From Chloroflexi bacterium GWB2_54_36 (lineage in GTDB: Bacteria; Chloroflexota; Anaerolineae; Anaerolineales; Anaerolineaceae), in assembly GCA_001796355.1 (NCBI GenBank), contig MGMG01000081.1, positions 196 through 64,195 of the forward strand: DNA of 64,000 nt, in the 5' to 3' direction. The notes under the pieces were generated by a model, which was not told the origin of the DNA, searched no databases, and saw nothing but the letters and a program-made list of their open reading frames with translations. Made by a program: the position numbers and the translations under genes. Below, in pieces: positions 21,617-30,076 of the stretch (position 1 is its first letter; the number at the start of each line of letters is the position of its first letter).

Positions 21617-23203
21617 ATGTCGATTGCCCCATTAACTCTGCAAGCGAACTACTGGGAAAGTTTTGAACTCCAGGACGAAGACCTGGAATACCTTTACAAC
21701 CATTTGCTGGAAATCGAGACGCCGCTAACCTCCCGTGAGTTGGCGGAGGTACTGGTTAAAGAACGCATCCGGTTCGAAACGGAAGAGATCAAAAAGCAAA
21801 TTGGCAATGGGGCGACATATTTTCCAAAAGATCATTACAAGGTGGGGGACAAAATCCGGTTCCCAGCGTTAAAGTGGGAAGCGGGAAAAATCGCCGGCAT
21901 CCGGCCGGGCACTAATCCCGAATATAGCCCTTTTGAAGTCATCGAAGTCGAATTTAATACTTTTGGCAAGCGCGCCTTTGCCTCCGGCGTCGAAAACCAT
22001 CCACTCAACGCACCGATTGGATTGAGCACCGACGATCCTGCCCTGAACCTGCAGACTGTCATATCGCAGCACACTAAATCGATTCAAGCCAAGCTGGCCG
22101 AAAAATTTAATGCGGTGCCCGATCTTGTGCAGATTGCTGGCGCATGGTTCCCGCGCTCATTGCTGGTGGACGTCAATATCGGACATCTGAATCTGGCTGA
22201 GGCCGTTTTGGAAATGGCAGATGGTGGTCCGCTGCCCACCCGCCCCATCTTGGAACAAATTGAGCTGCCAACGGATGTCAACCTGAAATTGACCGAATTT
22301 TCGATGAATCTGGCGCTCCAGGAAGACGAGCGTTTCGATGAAGTCGGCCCTAGCGGTGAAACTTTATGGTTCTTGCAGCGTCTGGAACCGGAAGGGGTGC
22401 GGACAATACCGTTCCACCTGCGCTATCAGACTCCCTCAAACCTAGCCGCACTGGAAAACACGGACCTGGCCGCTGACCTCAATTCTATGGTCTTCGACGA
22501 ACTCGAGACTGAAGACGACCAGCCATCCCGCGGGAACCACATTACGGTCAGTTTGATTTACCCGCACTGGCGCAGCGGCACAATCCCGCTCTCGAAAAGC
22601 ATTGCCCGCCTGCTGCCCACCGCCTATGAAGCCCCCCGCGTCAACTTCACCTTTGTCGATGAAGATACCCACAAGGAATTCCCAGGCTGGGTGGTACGCC
22701 CACACCGCTATGTCTTCGGTCTCAAGGAATGGTACGAGGAAAAATCCTTGATCCCCGGCTCTCTGTTTGTTATAAAACAGGGAAAGATACCCGGGCAGGT
22801 TTTAATCCAGGCATTGAAAAAACGTCCCACGAAAGATTGGATCCGCACGGTTCTGGTTGGGACCGACGGGGGCGTTGTATTTACCATGCTCAAACAACAG
22901 ATCAGCAACGACCTGGATGACCGAATGGCGATCATGGTTCCCGACCCTGAAGCGATCGACAAACTGTGGGAACAGACCGGAAAAGCGCGCGGGACCCTGG
23001 AAGTTTCCATCATCAACACAATGCGCGAATTGATCAAACTGTCTCCACAGGGGCATGTTCATGCTCAGGAGCTGTATGCGGGCGTTAATATCCTCCGCCG
23101 CTGCCCGCCCGGCATCATCCTGCAAGTTCTCGCCAATCAACCGCAGGTGTCTCACCTGGGGGACTTATATTTCAAATTGGACGAGACGGCCTCCGAGGAG
23201 TAA
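21617..23203 (+). CDS. Hypothetical protein with several winged-HTH-like segments
   Basis: 528-aa ORF with normal codon usage, -10-like GGTATAAT upstream; the fold assignment is inference only. Confidence 0.75.
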   Translation: MSIAPLTLQANYWESFELQDEDLEYLYNHLLEIETPLTSRELAEVLVKERIRFETEEIKKQIGNGATYFPKDHYKVGDKIRFPALKWEAGKIAGIRPGTNPEYSPFEVIEVEFNTFGKRAFASGVENHPLNAPIGLSTDDPALNLQTVISQHTKSIQAKLAEKFNAVPDLVQIAGAWFPRSLLVDVNIGHLNLAEAVLEMADGGPLPTRPILEQIELPTDVNLKLTEFSMNLALQEDERFDEVGPSGETLWFLQRLEPEGVRTIPFHLRYQTPSNLAALENTDLAADLNSMVFDELETEDDQPSRGNHITVSLIYPHWRSGTIPLSKSIARLLPTAYEAPRVNFTFVDEDTHKEFPGWVVRPHRYVFGLKEWYEEKSLIPGSLFVIKQGKIPGQVLIQALKKRPTKDWIRTVLVGTDGGVVFTMLKQQISNDLDDRMAIMVPDPEAIDKLWEQTGKARGTLEVSIINTMRELIKLSPQGHVHAQELYAGVNILRRCPPGIILQVLANQPQVSHLGDLYFKLDETASEE

Positions 23204-23690: not shown

Positions 23691-23717
23691 TTGACGGTCA
23701 GATACATGTGCTATAAT
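23691..23717 (+). promoter_or_regulatory. Putative tRNA promoter
   Basis: Extended -10 TG-C-TATAAT at 23709-23717; TTGACG lies 15 nt upstream of the -10. Confidence 0.55.
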
Positions 23718-23747
23718 AATTTTCAGGCGTCGAAAACCGCTTCGTAC

Positions 23748-23820
23748 GCCCCTGTAGCTCAATGGACAGAGCACCGGACTTCTAATCCGATGGTTGTGAG
23801 TTCGAGTCTCACCAGGGGCG
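23748..23820 (+). tRNA. tRNA-Arg (anticodon TCT), CCA not encoded
   Basis: Cloverleaf: GCCCCTG/CAGGGGC acceptor, GCTC/GAGC D-stem, CTTCTAA anticodon loop, GTGAG-TTCGAGT-CTCAC T-arm; one C-A mismatch at the top of the anticodon stem. Confidence 0.96.
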
Positions 23821-23848
23821 CTGCATCCTTCTTTCAGAGGAGATAACC

Positions 23849-24400: not shown

Positions 24401-24832
24401 ATGATCACTGTAATATTTAAACCCAGACAGGTTCGCCCTGGGTATTCCATTGCTGAAGATCCTCTGGTCAATTTTGCCGGAAATCGTAATTATCGCCCGA
24501 ACTATCAGAGCCGTACCTGGCGCCCCTCCACAGACATCTATGAAACGGAAGAGAATATCAGCGTCCTGGTCGAAATTGCCGGTATGGACGAGGAAGATTT
24601 TTCGATCAGTATGGACCGGAATGTGCTCAACATTCAGGGAGTACGGCCTTCCCCGGTGGAAGAGCGGCGGGCTGTTCACCAGATGGAGATCCCATTTGGC
24701 GAATTTTCGGTCGAAATCGTCTTTTCGATGGAAGTGGATTTGAACCGGGTTACCGCAACCTACAACAACGGTTTTCTTAACATCATCTTGCCTAAAGAAC
24801 CACCCAAACACATCGACCTTACGAGAGAATAA
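24401..24832 (+). CDS. Hsp20/alpha-crystallin small heat-shock protein
   Basis: WRPSTDIYET, LVEIAGM, GEFSVEI and YNNGFLNIILPK. Confidence 0.92.
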   Translation: MITVIFKPRQVRPGYSIAEDPLVNFAGNRNYRPNYQSRTWRPSTDIYETEENISVLVEIAGMDEEDFSISMDRNVLNIQGVRPSPVEERRAVHQMEIPFGEFSVEIVFSMEVDLNRVTATYNNGFLNIILPKEPPKHIDLTRE

Positions 24833-24841
24833 CGAGCAACC

Positions 24842-27424
24842 ATGCCAGCATCCAGGTGGAATGTCGATCTTAGCCACATGTTATATGAAGCCGAGACAGA
24901 AGAAGGAAATTACGAAGAAATCTATTTTGGCTCTGCTGATTCTGAATTTGAAGGGCTTGTCGAAGAGCAAACCGGCCCTGAACCGGACTTTGTCGAAGAA
25001 TCCACGGTAAAACTGCCGGATGTTTTACCAATCCTGCCCCTGCGCGGATTAGTGGTTTATCCTCAAACTGGCGTGCCGCTCACCATTGGCCAACCGCGCT
25101 CCATCCGCCTGGTGGATGATGTCGTAGTTGGCGACCGCATGATCGGTTTGATAGCTTCCAAAGATCCCGAGCAAGAAAATCCCGGCCCGGAAAATCTCTA
25201 TCAGATTGGGACAGCGGCTTTAATTCACCGGTTGTTCCGCGCGCCAGACGGGACGATACGGCTGCTGGTGCAGGGTATTTCCCGCTTCAAGGTTGTTGAA
25301 TATACATCGCTAGAGCCCTATTTGCAGGCCAAAGTGGAGCCGCACGCAGAGACGCAGGAAGAAGGAATCGAGGTCGATGCCCTGGCGCGTAATATCCGCG
25401 ACCAGTTTGGCCATATCGCTGAAATGATTCCCTCCATGCCGCGCGAACTGGTGGCATCGATTGCCAGCCTTACTGATCCGTTGGCAACAGTTTATTCCAT
25501 CGCCAATTTACAGCGGATGGAAATTGCGGACGCCCAGGAAATTCTGGAAGTCGATTCGATTAGCGCAAAACTACACAAACTGGTCTCTTTGTTGACCCGG
25601 GAGAGCGAGGTCCTCGAGCTAAGCCAAAAAATTCAGAAAGAAGCGCGCTCAGAAATAGACAAAGTTCAACGTGAGTACTTCTTACGCGAACAACTCAAAG
25701 CCATCCAGCGCGAACTGGGCGAGGAGGATGAGCAGGCCGCAGACGTTGAAGAATTCCGCAAGAAGATCGAAGCCGTAACCATGCCAGAGGAAGCCGGAAC
25801 GCTCGCCCGGCGTGAACTGGAACGCCTCTCCCGCCTGCCTACCGCAGCCGCGGAATACGGCGTCATCCGAACCTATCTCGATTGGCTGGTCTCGATCCCC
25901 TGGTCAACCAGTACCCCGGATAATCTCGATATTTCTCACGCGCGCGAGGTGCTGGACGCCGACCACTACGGCCTGGAAGACATCAAAGAACGCATCCTGG
26001 AATATCTGGCCATCCGCAAGCTGCGCCACGAACGTCGTGAGGAATTTGCCGGTCAGACCAGCGAAGATAAAATCCGCAAAGAGCGCGAAGGCGTCATTCT
26101 GTGCTTTATAGGCCCGCCTGGCGTCGGAAAAACCAGCCTGGGCATGTCTATCAGCCGTGCGATGGGACGCAAATTTATCCGCATCTCGCTTGGCGGCGTG
26201 CGAGATGAAGCAGAGATTCGCGGTCACCGCCGGACTTACATCGGCGCCATGCCCGGCCGGATCATCCAGGCGCTACGACGAGCGGAAACTCGCAACCCGG
26301 TATTCATGCTGGATGAGATCGACAAGTTGAGTTTTGACTTCCGCGGCGACCCGGCCTCCGCTCTGCTCGAAGTCCTCGACCCGGAACAAAATGTCGAATT
26401 CCGGGATAATTACATCGAGGTAGCCTTCGATCTTTCGCAGGTGATGTTCATTACCACAGCCAACCAACTGGAGACCATTCCAGGGCCGCTTCTCGACCGG
26501 ATGGAAATCATCCACCTTTCCGGATATACCGAAAACGAGAAACTGCAAATCGCCAAGCGGTATCTCATACCCCGGCAGTTCCGTGAAAATAGCCTGCGCG
26601 AAGGTGAAATTGAATTCAGCGATAAAGCAATTGCCGCCATTATCCGCAGCTACACCCGTGAGTCGGGCGTACGCAGCCTGGAGCGGGAAATCGGTGGAAT
26701 TTGCCGAAAGATCGTCACCCGCATTACAGAAGGCAAGACCGAAAAAGTGGTGATCGACGCGGACATGGTGCGCGAGCTGCTTGGCCGACCGAAATATTTG
26801 GCGACCGAGGAAATTCAACGCCGCCTGGAAGTTCCCGGGGTTGCCACCGGATTGGCCTGGACGCCGGTTGGCGGAGATATTTTATTCATCGAGGCCACGC
26901 GCATGCCGGGCAGCAAAGGATTTATGACCACCGGTTCGGTTGGCAAGGTCATGCAGGAATCAGCTCAGGCGGCGTTGTCCTACGTCCGTTCGCGGACCTC
27001 CATTTTGGGCATCGATGATGCATCCTTTGAGCGTTCCGATCTTCACCTGCACATTCCGGCAGGCGCCCAGCCAAAAGATGGTCCTTCGGCAGGCGTCACC
27101 ATGGCTACCGCGCTGGTGTCGTTGATGACCGGCAAACTGGTACGATCGGATGTCGGGATGACTGGGGAGATCACCCTGCGCGGGCAGGTATTACCGGTTG
27201 GTGGGATTAAAGAGAAGATTCTGGCAGCCCACCGCGCCGGACTCAAAACGATTATCCTGCCGCGCGAAAACGAACCAGACCTGGAGGAACTACCTGAGGA
27301 AGTTCACCAGGCGATTAATTTTATTCTGGTCGATACTATGGATGAGGTGCTTAGCCAGGCATTAGAACCCCTCCCTCAGCCCGACCCGGTTAAAACCTCA
27401 GACGCAACCCATTCAAGCGAATAA
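24842..27424 (+). CDS. lon: ATP-dependent protease La
   Basis: LPILPLRG, Walker [24 protein letters not shown] (Ser) and GGIKEK (Lys); acidic N-terminal extension. Confidence 0.97.
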
Positions 27425-27429
27425 TCCTT

Positions 27430-27801
27430 ATGACACATGTTGTGCTGATCGAAGACGACCCGTCCATGCGGCATTTGCTCAAAATATTTTTGGAGATGGA
27501 GCAGTTTAGGACCACGCTCATCGACCATTTTGAGCCGAATGCAGTCATTGCTGAATTACAATCCAGCCAGGCTGATTTCTTACTCATGGACGTCCACTTG
27601 AACGGCGCAAATGGCCTTGCGCTATTGGCATCGGTCCGCGAGCAGCAGGGGTTAAAAGACCTCAAAATTTTGATGACTTCTGGCGAGGATTGCGAAGACG
27701 CCTGCCTAGCGGCAGGCGCTAACGGATTCCTCCTCAAACCCTATGCACCCACAGATTTACTCACCTGGCTGCGGTCTAAGGATTCGTCGCTCTCCAACTA
27801 A
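27430..27801 (+). CDS. Single-domain response regulator (receiver)
   Basis: LIEDD, LLMDVHL, MTSG and LLKPY. Confidence 0.88.
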   Translation: MTHVVLIEDDPSMRHLLKIFLEMEQFRTTLIDHFEPNAVIAELQSSQADFLLMDVHLNGANGLALLASVREQQGLKDLKILMTSGEDCEDACLAAGANGFLLKPYAPTDLLTWLRSKDSSLSN

Positions 27802-27818
27802 ATTTGAGGAGCATACTT

Positions 27819-29567
27819 ATGGCAAGAAAACAAAACCAGGCTGCCAGTCAATGGTATACCGTTGATTTGCACCTGCACACCCCTGCGTCCACTGATTTTC
27901 AGCAACCGGATGCAACTTACATTGACATTTTAGAAAAGGCCGAAACGCGCGGTCTGGATATGATCGCCTTCACCGACCATAATACGGTGGCAGGCTATCG
28001 CAAACTCAGCGACGAGATTCAGCAGTTGGAGCTGCTCGAAAAATTAGGGCGGCTGCTGCCGGAAGAGCGCACGCGGCTTGACCAATACCGGCGGCTGATG
28101 GCCAGGATCCTGGTGCTTCCCGGATTCGAATTCACTGCCACCTTTGGTTTTCATATCCTGTGCATTTTTCCACCGGATAAGCCCGTGCGAGAACTCGAAC
28201 ATTTGCTGCTGACGCTGAATATCCCCCCGGAACACATCGACGAGGGTTCTCAAACGGTCGGCGCCACCTCGGATGCGCTTACTGTTTACCGGGTGGTCAA
28301 CCAGCATGGCGGCCTGGTGATCGCCGCACACGCCAACTCAAGCAACGGCGTTGCCATGCGCGGTTTCAATTTTGGCGGCCAAACCAAGATCGCCTTTACG
28401 CAAGACATCAATTTGCATGCGTTGGAAGTGACCGACCTGGAACAAAAGGGGCCGCGCAGCACAGCGGCATTTTTTAACGGCACCAAACCGGAATACCCTC
28501 GCCGAATGCACTGCGTCCAGGGATCTGACGCCCATCGGGTAACGGCTGACCCATTGCGCAAGAAAAATCTCAGTATTGGTGATCGGGCAACCGATGTGCT
28601 GATGACCGAATGTACCTTCCAGGCGCTCAAGGAAGTTTTCCTTGGCAACGACTTTTCGCGTACCCGCCCCCACAGCCATGCAGAAGAACAGGCGTACGAC
28701 TTCATCCAATCCGCTGTAGAAGAAGGTTCGAATATCATCACAGAGTTCCATGACAGCATTACGGTTCGCGGCGGAAAACTGTACGATATTTTGGCGGATG
28801 TGTGCGCCTTTGCCAATACCAACGGCGGGACGCTCTACCTGGGGGTGAGCGAAGATGTCAAAAAGCTGCCAGTGGGTATTCCTGACCCGGAGCAAGCGAT
28901 TCAGCAAATCGAGAAAGAGATCAACAATCGAATCAGCCCTCCGCTTCATTGTCAGATGGACATTCACGACTACCGCGGCAAGAAATTGGTGCGGGTGCTG
29001 GTGCCGCGCGGCGATGAACCACCTTACGCCGTGGACGACAACAAGATTTATGTACGCGATGAAGCCGAAACCGGCCTGGCTGTGCGCGACGAAATCGTCA
29101 GTTTGGTGCTGCGCAACAAACGCGAACCGCACGCTGTATCTCAGCCCTCGACCAGTCCGACCGAACCGGTTACCCGCGCGGAGGCGCCTGTCAAAGAAGA
29201 AGCCGATATGGATGATGCGCCGCGTACTGGTGTGGAAGTGTTGAATCCCGAAGAACGACAGGGTAAAACGTACTTCACCATGCGGGATTTGCGCAACGGC
29301 AACATGGTCAAAAATGTCACCCGCGCATCCGCCCGTAAGTTGTGGCATTACGCCATCAACCGGTATAACGAGCTGGCGCCTAATTTAGAAAATACGCACA
29401 TCACCTGGCAAGGCGACCTGGGTTTCATAGGCCAGGTCAGACAGGGTAGCACGGTGCGCTACGACCTGATTCAACGCACCACGGGCGGATATCGTTTCTA
29501 TTTTGGCGTCACCGCTGATGGCATACACGGCGGCTGGAAGCACTTGATTGGCGAGGATGAAGGCTAA
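27819..29567 (+). CDS. PHP phosphoesterase fused to a Schlafen/AlbA_2 domain and an unknown C-terminal domain
   Basis: PHP motifs DLHLHT, TDHN, GFEF...FHIL, AHAN and GSDAH. AlbA_2 motifs DVCAFANTNGGTLYLGV and RVLVPRGDEPPY...IYVR. RBS GAGGAG before ATG 27819. Confidence 0.85.
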   Translation: MARKQNQAASQWYTVDLHLHTPASTDFQQPDATYIDILEKAETRGLDMIAFTDHNTVAGYRKLSDEIQQLELLEKLGRLLPEERTRLDQYRRLMARILVLPGFEFTATFGFHILCIFPPDKPVRELEHLLLTLNIPPEHIDEGSQTVGATSDALTVYRVVNQHGGLVIAAHANSSNGVAMRGFNFGGQTKIAFTQDINLHALEVTDLEQKGPRSTAAFFNGTKPEYPRRMHCVQGSDAHRVTADPLRKKNLSIGDRATDVLMTECTFQALKEVFLGNDFSRTRPHSHAEEQAYDFIQSAVEEGSNIITEFHDSITVRGGKLYDILADVCAFANTNGGTLYLGVSEDVKKLPVGIPDPEQAIQQIEKEINNRISPPLHCQMDIHDYRGKKLVRVLVPRGDEPPYAVDDNKIYVRDEAETGLAVRDEIVSLVLRNKREPHAVSQPSTSPTEPVTRAEAPVKEEADMDDAPRTGVEVLNPEERQGKTYFTMRDLRNGNMVKNVTRASARKLWHYAINRYNELAPNLENTHITWQGDLGFIGQVRQGSTVRYDLIQRTTGGYRFYFGVTADGIHGGWKHLIGEDEG

Positions 29568-30076
29568 TGACCGTCCGGTTTAGCGTGCTCACCGTGTCAG
29601 ACCGGTCAGCCCGCGGCGAGCGGGAAGATTTGGCCGGTCCGGCGTTGGTTAAACAGGTAGAGACTGCCGGCCACAGGATCGTCCATATCGCGATTGTTGC
29701 GGATGAAGCAGCCGATATCAGCCGAGTGTTGACAATCTGGTGCGACTCCGGTGAGACCGATGTGATTCTAACCACGGGCGGGACAGGTTTTGCCCCACGT
29801 GATGTCACGCCGGAAGCTACCGCGGCGGTTATTCAACGGTCGGCTCCCGGCATTGCTGAAGCAGCTCGGGCTTTCAGCTTACAGCTGACGCCGCATGCCA
29901 TGCTGAGCCGCAATGCTGCTGGCATTCGCGGTCGTACGCTGATCATTAACCTCCCGGGCAGCCCAAAAGCTTCCCGGGAGATCCTGGATTATCTGCTGCC
30001 GGTGCTGTCGCACGCGGTTGAACTCCTAAAAGACGACCCGCGCGCTGAACAAGGCCACGGAAAGATTGGCGTGTAA
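29567..30076 (+). CDS. mog: MogA/MoaB molybdopterin adenylyltransferase
   Basis: LTVSDR, TTGGTGFAPRDVTPEAT, SRNAAGIRG and NLPGSPKA; TAATG overlap with the upstream gene. Confidence 0.92.
   Translation: MTVRFSVLTVSDRSARGEREDLAGPALVKQVETAGHRIVHIAIVADEAADISRVLTIWCDSGETDVILTTGGTGFAPRDVTPEATAAVIQRSAPGIAEAARAFSLQLTPHAMLSRNAAGIRGRTLIINLPGSPKASREILDYLLPVLSHAVELLKDDPRAEQGHGKIGV

Follow-up and report, generated by a model that had tools for sequence, protein, structure and literature searches.

A Schlafen-like domain fused to a Ppl/TrlF-type PHP domain in a conserved hsp20-lon operon of Anaerolineae: a candidate nucleic-acid end-processing enzyme

Schlafen (AlbA_2) domains and PHP phosphoesterase domains of the Ppl/TrlF type have been discussed almost only as immune effectors. 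Ppl from Escherichia coli is described, in a review statement, as a single-stranded DNA (ssDNA) 3'-5' exonuclease that acts via its PHP domain (PMC12904381). Schlafen domains recur in prokaryotic defence, and the catalytic centre of one of them, CbCash, consists of E17, D22 and K24 with Mg2+ (PMC13462974). Here we analyse a gene that joins both kinds of module in a core-like stress operon. It was found in a window of 64,000 nucleotides (nt) from Chloroflexi bacterium GWB2_54_36 (assembly GCA_001796355.1, contig MGMG01000081.1, positions 196-64,195, forward strand), and its product consists of a PHP domain, an AlbA_2 domain and an orphan C-terminal domain. With moderate confidence we regard this protein as a lineage-specific stress-operon enzyme for processing nucleic-acid ends, in which the PHP domain would provide catalysis and the AlbA_2 and C-terminal domains recognition, and not as a defence effector.

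Profile searches, homologue alignments and an AlphaFold2 model (mean predicted local distance difference test (pLDDT) 84.9, predicted template modelling score (pTM) 0.74) set the borders of the four segments listed in Table 1. The PHP and AlbA_2 modules are known as such, while the architecture with the orphan domain is undescribed and widely conserved. A previous reading of the letters and their open reading frames (ORFs), made before any database search and called the sequence-only reading below, had proposed a PHP-Schlafen fusion at this locus. All motifs that it quoted were found in their places. It had also named as a ground for refutation that the fusion might already be characterised with another function, but none of the papers searched describes a PHP-AlbA_2 fusion, and NCBIfam holds no model for the architecture.

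The N-terminal segment belongs to the PHP superfamily, as seen from its hidden Markov model (HMM) matches and its full set of His, Asp and Glu ligands. In NCBIfam, residues 10-285 matched the PHP N-terminus of the TrlF-family AAA-like ATPases (8.9e-31), Ppl (1.8e-22) and Spaf_1101 (3e-19), and the PADLOC model for Ppl matched the domain at 5.7e-19. Only profile positions 3-278 of the TrlF, Ppl and Spaf_1101 families were covered, and the scores of 107, 79 and 69 bits against the full-length PHP-ATPase models, with equivalog cutoffs of 350, 1000 and 475, leave the protein outside these families. The Pfam scan of the protein showed no ATPase domain after the PHP domain. When a plasmid-encoded TrlF was aligned, its first 270 residues matched end to end with every ligand motif in register, and the closest folds found by Foldseek were TM0559 (2anu, E 3.8e-8), then BAD_1165 (3e0f) and then the PHP domains of Pol III alpha. 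Residues D16, H18, H20, D26, D53, H54, E104, H112, H171, E203, D237 and H239 showed little or no variation across 86 Anaerolineae homologues and 17 more divergent ones, in agreement with the sequence-only reading, which had called the metal ligands intact. Residues 58-96 of the domain form an inserted helical hairpin, and residues 182-196 a conserved flexible loop, FGGQTKIAxTQD, which is specific to this family and is not present in Ppl or TrlF. In E. coli, the IncFIA plasmid NZ_CP097428.1 (24260-35144) carries a TrlF gene directly after genes for a DEAD/DEAH helicase and an N6 DNA methylase, in a restriction-like three-gene arrangement.

It is from membership in the TrlF/Ppl clade only that we infer nuclease activity for the PHP domain, and the best inference by this analogy is a metal-dependent nuclease or phosphoesterase that would act on nucleic-acid 3' ends. 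Ppl, with its reported 3'-5' exonuclease activity on ssDNA, is the closest PHP relative that has been characterised. Many PHP proteins are small-molecule phosphatases, and the protein might accordingly not be a nucleic-acid enzyme: its PHP domain could hydrolyse a small phosphorylated molecule (a pAp-like nucleotide, an alarmone or a polyphosphate-derived species), with the AlbA_2 and C-terminal domains making it a ligand-controlled DNA-binding regulator, or an adaptor or substrate of Lon. Weak NCBIfam matches to a 3',5'-bisphosphate nucleotidase and to histidinol-phosphatase-like proteins, a match to PDB entry 2yxo, the tight linkage of the gene to lon and a receiver gene, and the annotation of relatives as "transcriptional regulator" or "DNA-binding domain-containing protein" are in line with such a role. 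On the other hand, it was nuclease-type PHP domains, those of TrlF and Ppl, that matched strongly (1e-30), while the small-molecule enzymes, like RNase RNM, matched weakly at about 1e-4. Furthermore, the protein showed neither a helix-turn-helix nor any other effector domain, and the public names are generic and not experimental. We consider a small-molecule enzyme unlikely.

The AlbA_2 domain was recognised both by sequence profile and by fold. Pfam PF04326 matched with 67.4 bits (cutoff 25.3), residues 320-418 corresponding to profile positions 19-114 of 118, and it also scored above the cutoff in the Oscillochloris-type and long-variant homologues. Profile positions 1-18, the expected site of the Schlafen catalytic motif, were left unaligned. 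Among PDB sequences, a profile built from the AlbA_2 domains of the family matched pig SLFN11 (4e-9), SLFN12, SLFN14, SLFN13, SLFN5 and CbCash (4e-5). Foldseek with the AlphaFold2 model (pLDDT 85) returned 3lmm and 2kyy as the best structural matches, together with SLFN11 (7fex), SLFN5 (7q3z) and SLFN13 (5yd0), all with a probability of 0.98-1.0. The AlbA_2 assignment of the sequence-only reading, which was to fall if HMM or structure failed to support it, is thus upheld by both.

The catalytic positions gave a different picture from the fold. The motif GSNIITEFH, in which the sequence-only reading had seen an altered Schlafen motif with Ser for the first Glu and His for the Lys, is present at residues 303-311. 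F310-H311-E312 aligns with F-K-Q of pig SLFN11, which shows that the Lys-to-His correspondence is right, and His311 was kept in 81 of the 86 Anaerolineae homologues (94%) and lost in those from Chloroflexia. Ser304, in contrast, was not conserved: at this first acid position the 86 homologues had Pro (35), Ala (26), Ser (8) or Glu (6), and at the second acid position, 309, Asp (37), Ser (16), Ala (13) or Glu (11). The downstream "GV-D" acid at positions 344-346 was likewise variable. In Oscillochloris the strand at the GSNIITEFH site reads GGSTERQVLRPIDDE, with the PHP ligands intact. An acidic-acidic-lysine centre corresponding to E17/D22/K24 of CbCash, or to the E-E-D triad of the mammalian proteins, was therefore not found, and conservation in the domain was confined to its structural core, AFANTNGG-T-LY-G, and to basic residues such as R413 and R423. 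Since the Schlafen catalytic positions are not conserved across the family, we conclude from the alignments that the AlbA_2 domain is a putative non-catalytic nucleic-acid binding module rather than an RNase.

The same finding speaks against the "rewired catalysis" that the sequence-only reading had allowed for. In that alternative, the AlbA_2 domain would still be an RNase, with a site built from His311, Glu312 and their neighbours, and the PHP domain would process the resulting 2',3'-cyclic or 3'-phosphate ends. Within Anaerolineae, Gly303, Gln308, Phe310 and His311 are near-invariant, Glu or Asp is found at position 312 in 77 of the 86 homologues, and the strand that carries residues Gly303-His311 is kept in the model. 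PHP enzymes moreover include cyclic-phosphate phosphodiesterases and 3'-phosphatases, and weak NCBIfam matches to RNase RNM and a cyclic phosphate dihydrolase were obtained. However, the motif is lost in the wider family, as the Oscillochloris strand illustrates while the PHP ligands remain invariant there, no conserved acidic pair is present that could hold a metal, and the profile alignment does not extend over the stretch where the catalytic motif is expected. A rewired RNase is in our opinion very unlikely.

The AlbA_2 domain is followed by the Pro/Thr linker of the sequence-only reading, which is also rich in Glu, is not conserved, and varies in length from 14 to 61 residues in close relatives to hundreds of residues in some representatives. 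The C-terminal domain, when modelled alone, had a pLDDT of 91.2 and a pTM of 0.85. It gave no match in Pfam or to PDB sequences, and Foldseek returned nothing with E <= 0.001 in the PDB or in BFVD (viral structures). A Whirly-, PUR- or SsgA-like identity was considered and rejected, the best match being SsgA-like 3cm1 with E 0.04 and a template modelling (TM) score of 0.30, and no TM score in the PDB or BFVD exceeding 0.36. Region-restricted and genome searches located the domain once per genome and only within the PHP-AlbA_2 protein, and turned up no other architecture that contains it.

Two similar units had been noted in the C-terminal domain by the sequence-only reading. The model does show two beta4-alpha halves (residues 472-525 and 529-577), each a beta-hairpin plus a helix with Trp, but similarity in sequence was absent: comparison of residues 466-530 with 528-582 by hhalign, and self-comparison, gave a probability of at most 0.1%. 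The "duplicated module" would thus be, at best, a structural pseudo-repeat of the predicted fold. In Oscillochloris-type homologues, the whole domain of 115 residues is tandemly repeated (24% identity, E 2e-8), which indicates that it is an autonomous module. The variants of 700-1358 residues had no extra domains, their surplus being linker, low-complexity sequence or a second C-terminal domain.

A word-indexed search gave more than 7000 full-length relatives with 66-99% identity, and those with a source name came from Anaerolineae or Chloroflexota metagenome bins and had generic protein names. Exhaustive search of 1.84 billion cluster representatives yielded only 180 clusters at E <= 1e-30, and the family is therefore taxonomically narrow. 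Among close relatives of the same genus, family and order, 38 of 41 genomes had one full-length copy each. An evenly drawn sample of the class had the gene in 135 of its 201 genomes and in 87 of its 118 genera; in one family it was missing from all 13 genomes sampled. A sample of the phylum, likewise evenly drawn, had it in 27 of 201 genomes, and there the homologues included ORFs of 770-816 residues with 36-41% identity, one of them WP_006563248 of Oscillochloris trichoides DG-6. Named loci were found in Anaerolineales, Caldilineales, Promineifilaceae and Thermoflexia, with Leptolinea sp. HRD-7 among them.

Most of the 80 named Anaerolineae loci exhibit the gene order hsp20-lon-receiver-X-mog, where X is the PHP-AlbA_2 gene and mog encodes a MoaB/Mog-type protein. 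The most constant neighbour was the receiver gene, which stays upstream of X even when lon is not nearby, and in Chloroflexia the neighbours were likewise ordinary genes. Across loci, identity to the window protein followed identity of the accompanying lon product (Spearman 0.85, n=63). The ratio of nonsynonymous to synonymous substitution rates (dN/dS), taken against two congeners, was 0.036 and 0.067 for the PHP-AlbA_2 gene and 0.043 and 0.029 for lon. Lineages devoid of the gene retain hsp20, lon, the response regulator (RR) gene and mog, with RR and mog 15-18 nt apart in two of four such loci. The operon persists without the gene, which is hence dispensable; a stable string of genes has either lost it cleanly or taken it up by insertion. 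The gene is vertically inherited, non-essential and strongly conserved in Chloroflexota, mainly in Anaerolineae.

Some individual genomes deserve mention. The four gene-less loci belong to genomes G038, G081, G024 and G036. About 450 nt separate RR from mog in G081 and might hold a remnant, and in G036 mog directly follows lon and a receiver gene is missing. Six genomes of one family (G271, G308, G339, G368, G394 and G417) contain a pair of paralogues: the first is of the Anaerolineae type, with about 54% identity, and the second, with 34-39% identity and 780-806 residues, is of the long Oscillochloris-like type. Such a pair suggests that the gene was duplicated long ago or was transferred from one class to another. 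In-frame stops were seen in two copies, at G398:C27:993299-995008 (one TGA and one TAG) and G300:C75:3472-5202 (one TAG). They may be pseudogenes or reflect errors in sequencing, and they are consistent with dispensability.

A defence role, which the sequence-only reading had kept as an option, is contradicted by the data described above, which show a gene that is inherited vertically, has a fixed synteny and is under strong purifying selection. In its most explicit form, the protein would be a fixed single-gene effector against phages or plasmids, in which the AlbA_2 and orphan domains replace the ATPase as sensor of foreign nucleic acid that the PHP exonuclease then degrades. Elsewhere, this PHP clade is a component of defence proteins (PADLOC lists Ppl, and TrlF lies beside a DEAD helicase and N6-methylase on IncF plasmids), prokaryotic Schlafen domains are recurrent in defence (PMC13462974), and the gene is dispensable and was lost in several lineages. 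Yet it is single-copy and fixed in one housekeeping operon throughout the class, where it co-diverges with lon and has a dN/dS as low as that of lon, and full-length homologues were found neither among 50,697 phage nor among 72,556 plasmid records. The Schlafen catalytic set is missing, and the gene is not surrounded by a defence island. The general signs of a defence system, namely an island or mobile context, patchy horizontal spread and fast evolution, were thus not observed, and we judge this explanation to be quite improbable.

Table 1. Location of the gene, its protein domains and its neighbours in the window.
Feature	Position	Strand	Basis
Gene for the 582-residue PHP-AlbA_2-orphan-domain protein (P0001; X in gene orders)	27819..29567	+	ORF list, translation
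PHP metal-dependent phosphoesterase/nuclease domain (predicted), TrlF/Ppl type (residues 10-290)	27846..28688	+	Profiles, fold, ligands
AlbA_2/Schlafen-like domain, predicted non-catalytic (residues 295-435)	28701..29123	+	Pfam, PDB profile, alignment
Disordered Pro/Glu/Thr-rich linker (residues 436-465)	29124..29213	+	pLDDT <50; 12% mean identity
Orphan C-terminal beta-rich domain (residues 466-578, about 115 residues)	29214..29552	+	AlphaFold2, beta4-alpha-beta4-alpha
Ribosome-binding site GAGGAG, 7 nt 5' of ATG	27806..27811	+	Direct sequence reading
Hsp20-family small heat-shock protein	24401..24832	+	Pfam HSP20 52 bits
LonA protease	24842..27424	+	TIGR00763 934 bits (cutoff 608)
Receiver-only response regulator (RR), directly upstream of the PHP-AlbA_2 gene	27430..27801	+	Pfam Response_reg 66 bits
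MoaB/Mog-type molybdopterin-binding protein (mog)	29567..30076	+	Pfam MoCF_biosynth 116 bits; TIGR00177 127 bits

The ORF begins with ATG at 27819 and its TAA stop ends at 29567. This ATG, and not the in-frame TTG at 27804, is the likely start because of the ribosome-binding site just upstream. The genes of the string are closely packed, with 5 nt between lon and RR, 17 nt between RR and X, and an overlap of 1 nt between X and mog, where stop and start codons share the sequence TAATG. ORF coordinates and profile matches hence agree with the sequence-only reading on the coupling to mog and on the position downstream of hsp20, lon and the receiver gene. Its claim that neither defence nor mobile genes are close by also stands: the only PADLOC match among the neighbours was lon, weakly, to BrxL and DolB via protease and ATPase regions, and no PADLOC defence model matched any other neighbour.

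Upstream of these genes, a tRNA-Arg (anticodon TCT) is located at 23748-23821 (+), between a pair of genes without assignment and tpx, and is preceded by a promoter-like TTGACG-18-AATAAT at 23691-23720. Given this position ahead of the tRNA, tRNA-Arg and the tpx-hsp20-lon-RR-X-mog string may have a common transcript start. A tRNA is likewise visible 5' of hsp20 in several related loci. Further upstream, at 21617-23203 (+), a protein of 528 residues without a Pfam match is encoded, which is syntenic 5' of hsp20-lon across the order with 49-65% identity.

Recurrent sequence features were also observed directly upstream of hsp20. At 40-90 nt from the gene, seven loci given as examples (L012, L041, L046, L047, L066, L069 and L072) have the extended -10-like motif (C)TGTGGTAGAAT / TGTGCTACAAT, often together with a TTGAGC-like -35 element. 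As far as its sequence tells, this motif resembles a conserved promoter of the sigma-70 type, not a known heat-shock operator. One Anaerolineae metagenome-assembled genome has a long tandem array of CTGCAAT heptamers, with CTGCACT variants, immediately 5' of hsp20, about 140 nt upstream. As for the regulator, single-domain receivers can serve as adaptors of AAA+ proteases, and the receiver-only protein may by analogy belong functionally to Lon, because it stays with lon where the PHP-AlbA_2 gene is absent.

Together, the data are consistent with the following scheme for an end-processing enzyme. Catalysis would reside in the PHP domain only. This domain, a member of the TrlF/Ppl clade, would be a phosphoesterase with two or three metals, whose most likely activity is to take nucleotides or phosphate groups off single-stranded DNA or RNA at the 3' end. 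The AlbA_2 domain, with its fold kept and the acidic and lysine residues of Schlafen catalysis gone, would serve as a docking module for nucleic acid, and the C-terminal domain, on its flexible linker of variable length, as a second, autonomous module for binding or targeting a nucleic acid or a partner protein. Co-transcription with hsp20, lon and the stand-alone receiver gene would mean that the enzyme is made together with the machinery for proteotoxic stress, and it would probably clear or process damaged or stalled nucleic acids under such conditions. With regard to the substrate, analogy to Ppl points to ssDNA 3' ends, and the Schlafen lineage to tRNA or other structured RNA. The general idea of the sequence-only reading, in which a domesticated Schlafen captures nucleic acid and presents the substrate to the PHP site, fits the predicted non-catalytic AlbA_2 domain and the intact PHP domain.

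Several observations weigh against this scheme. The 94% conservation of His311 in Anaerolineae is not accounted for by a purely "dead" AlbA_2 domain. Pfam PF02811 (PHP) scored 25.5 bits, slightly below its gathering cutoff of 26.4, so that the PHP identity comes from the NCBIfam matches (1e-30), the fold and the motifs, and small-molecule phosphatases also occur among PHP domains. Searches of the window and of 54 regions upstream of hsp20 detected neither of the heat-shock operators CIRCE and HAIR, so that we assume induction by stress from the genes that the operon contains; the stress link as a whole is an assumption from operon membership. Finally, since lineages that do not have the gene keep hsp20-lon-RR-mog intact, it may travel with the operon as a passenger rather than act in partnership with Lon.

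A more specific version of the end-processing enzyme can be formulated, although we put it forward as speculation that is doubtful in its full extent. It would be a housekeeping Schlafen, in which the dead domain docks tRNA or structured RNA and feeds 3' ends to the Ppl-type PHP exonuclease; made together with Hsp20 and Lon, the enzyme would trim or clear tRNA, rRNA or stalled nucleic-acid ends under proteotoxic stress, and the C-terminal domain would be an undescribed fold for binding nucleic acid or a partner. If this were true, a module of immune systems would serve core stress physiology across a bacterial class, which is the opposite of the usual direction.

The host class is large and poorly studied, and it is abundant in digesters, sediments and wastewater. 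Characterisation of the protein would reveal what a non-catalytic prokaryotic Schlafen domain binds and give a function to a confidently predicted but orphan fold of 115 residues, and the protein would be a tractable monomeric model of a Ppl-type PHP exonuclease without ATPase. The class-wide hsp20-lon-receiver operon has been documented alongside.

Compared with known systems, the PHP domain shares its metal-site architecture with TM0559 (2anu), BAD_1165 (3e0f) and the PHP domains of Pol III alpha and PolX (E 4e-8 to 1e-6 against solved structures), but identity is only 16-18%, and those proteins have no such nucleic-acid-binding fusion partners. The AlbA_2 domain has the fold and the core motif AFANTxGGxLxxG in common with SLFN11, SLFN13, SLFN14 and CbCash. 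It differs from them in that the E/D-K (plus D) centre is not conserved, and it is found without a sensor domain (CARF-like or helicase) and outside an immune context. A fold that is devoid of catalytic residues and presumed to bind nucleic acid is also seen in nuclease-inactive Schlafens such as mouse Slfn2, in DIP2311 (3lmm) and in the "RecG-related" 2kyy; these carry HATPase_c_4/winged helix-turn-helix domains or no enzyme domain, whereas the present protein has PHP and the orphan domain. The closest resemblance in the catalytic part is to Ppl and TrlF, with a homologous N-terminal PHP domain of about 280 residues that includes the W-x3-D-x-H-x-H-T-P-x-S start, the helical insert and all ligand motifs. 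In contrast to Ppl and TrlF, which have an ATPase part resembling SMC (structural maintenance of chromosomes) proteins and are encoded on plasmids or in defence loci, the PHP domain described here is partnered by AlbA_2 and the orphan domain, and its gene is chromosomal, vertically inherited and set in a housekeeping context.

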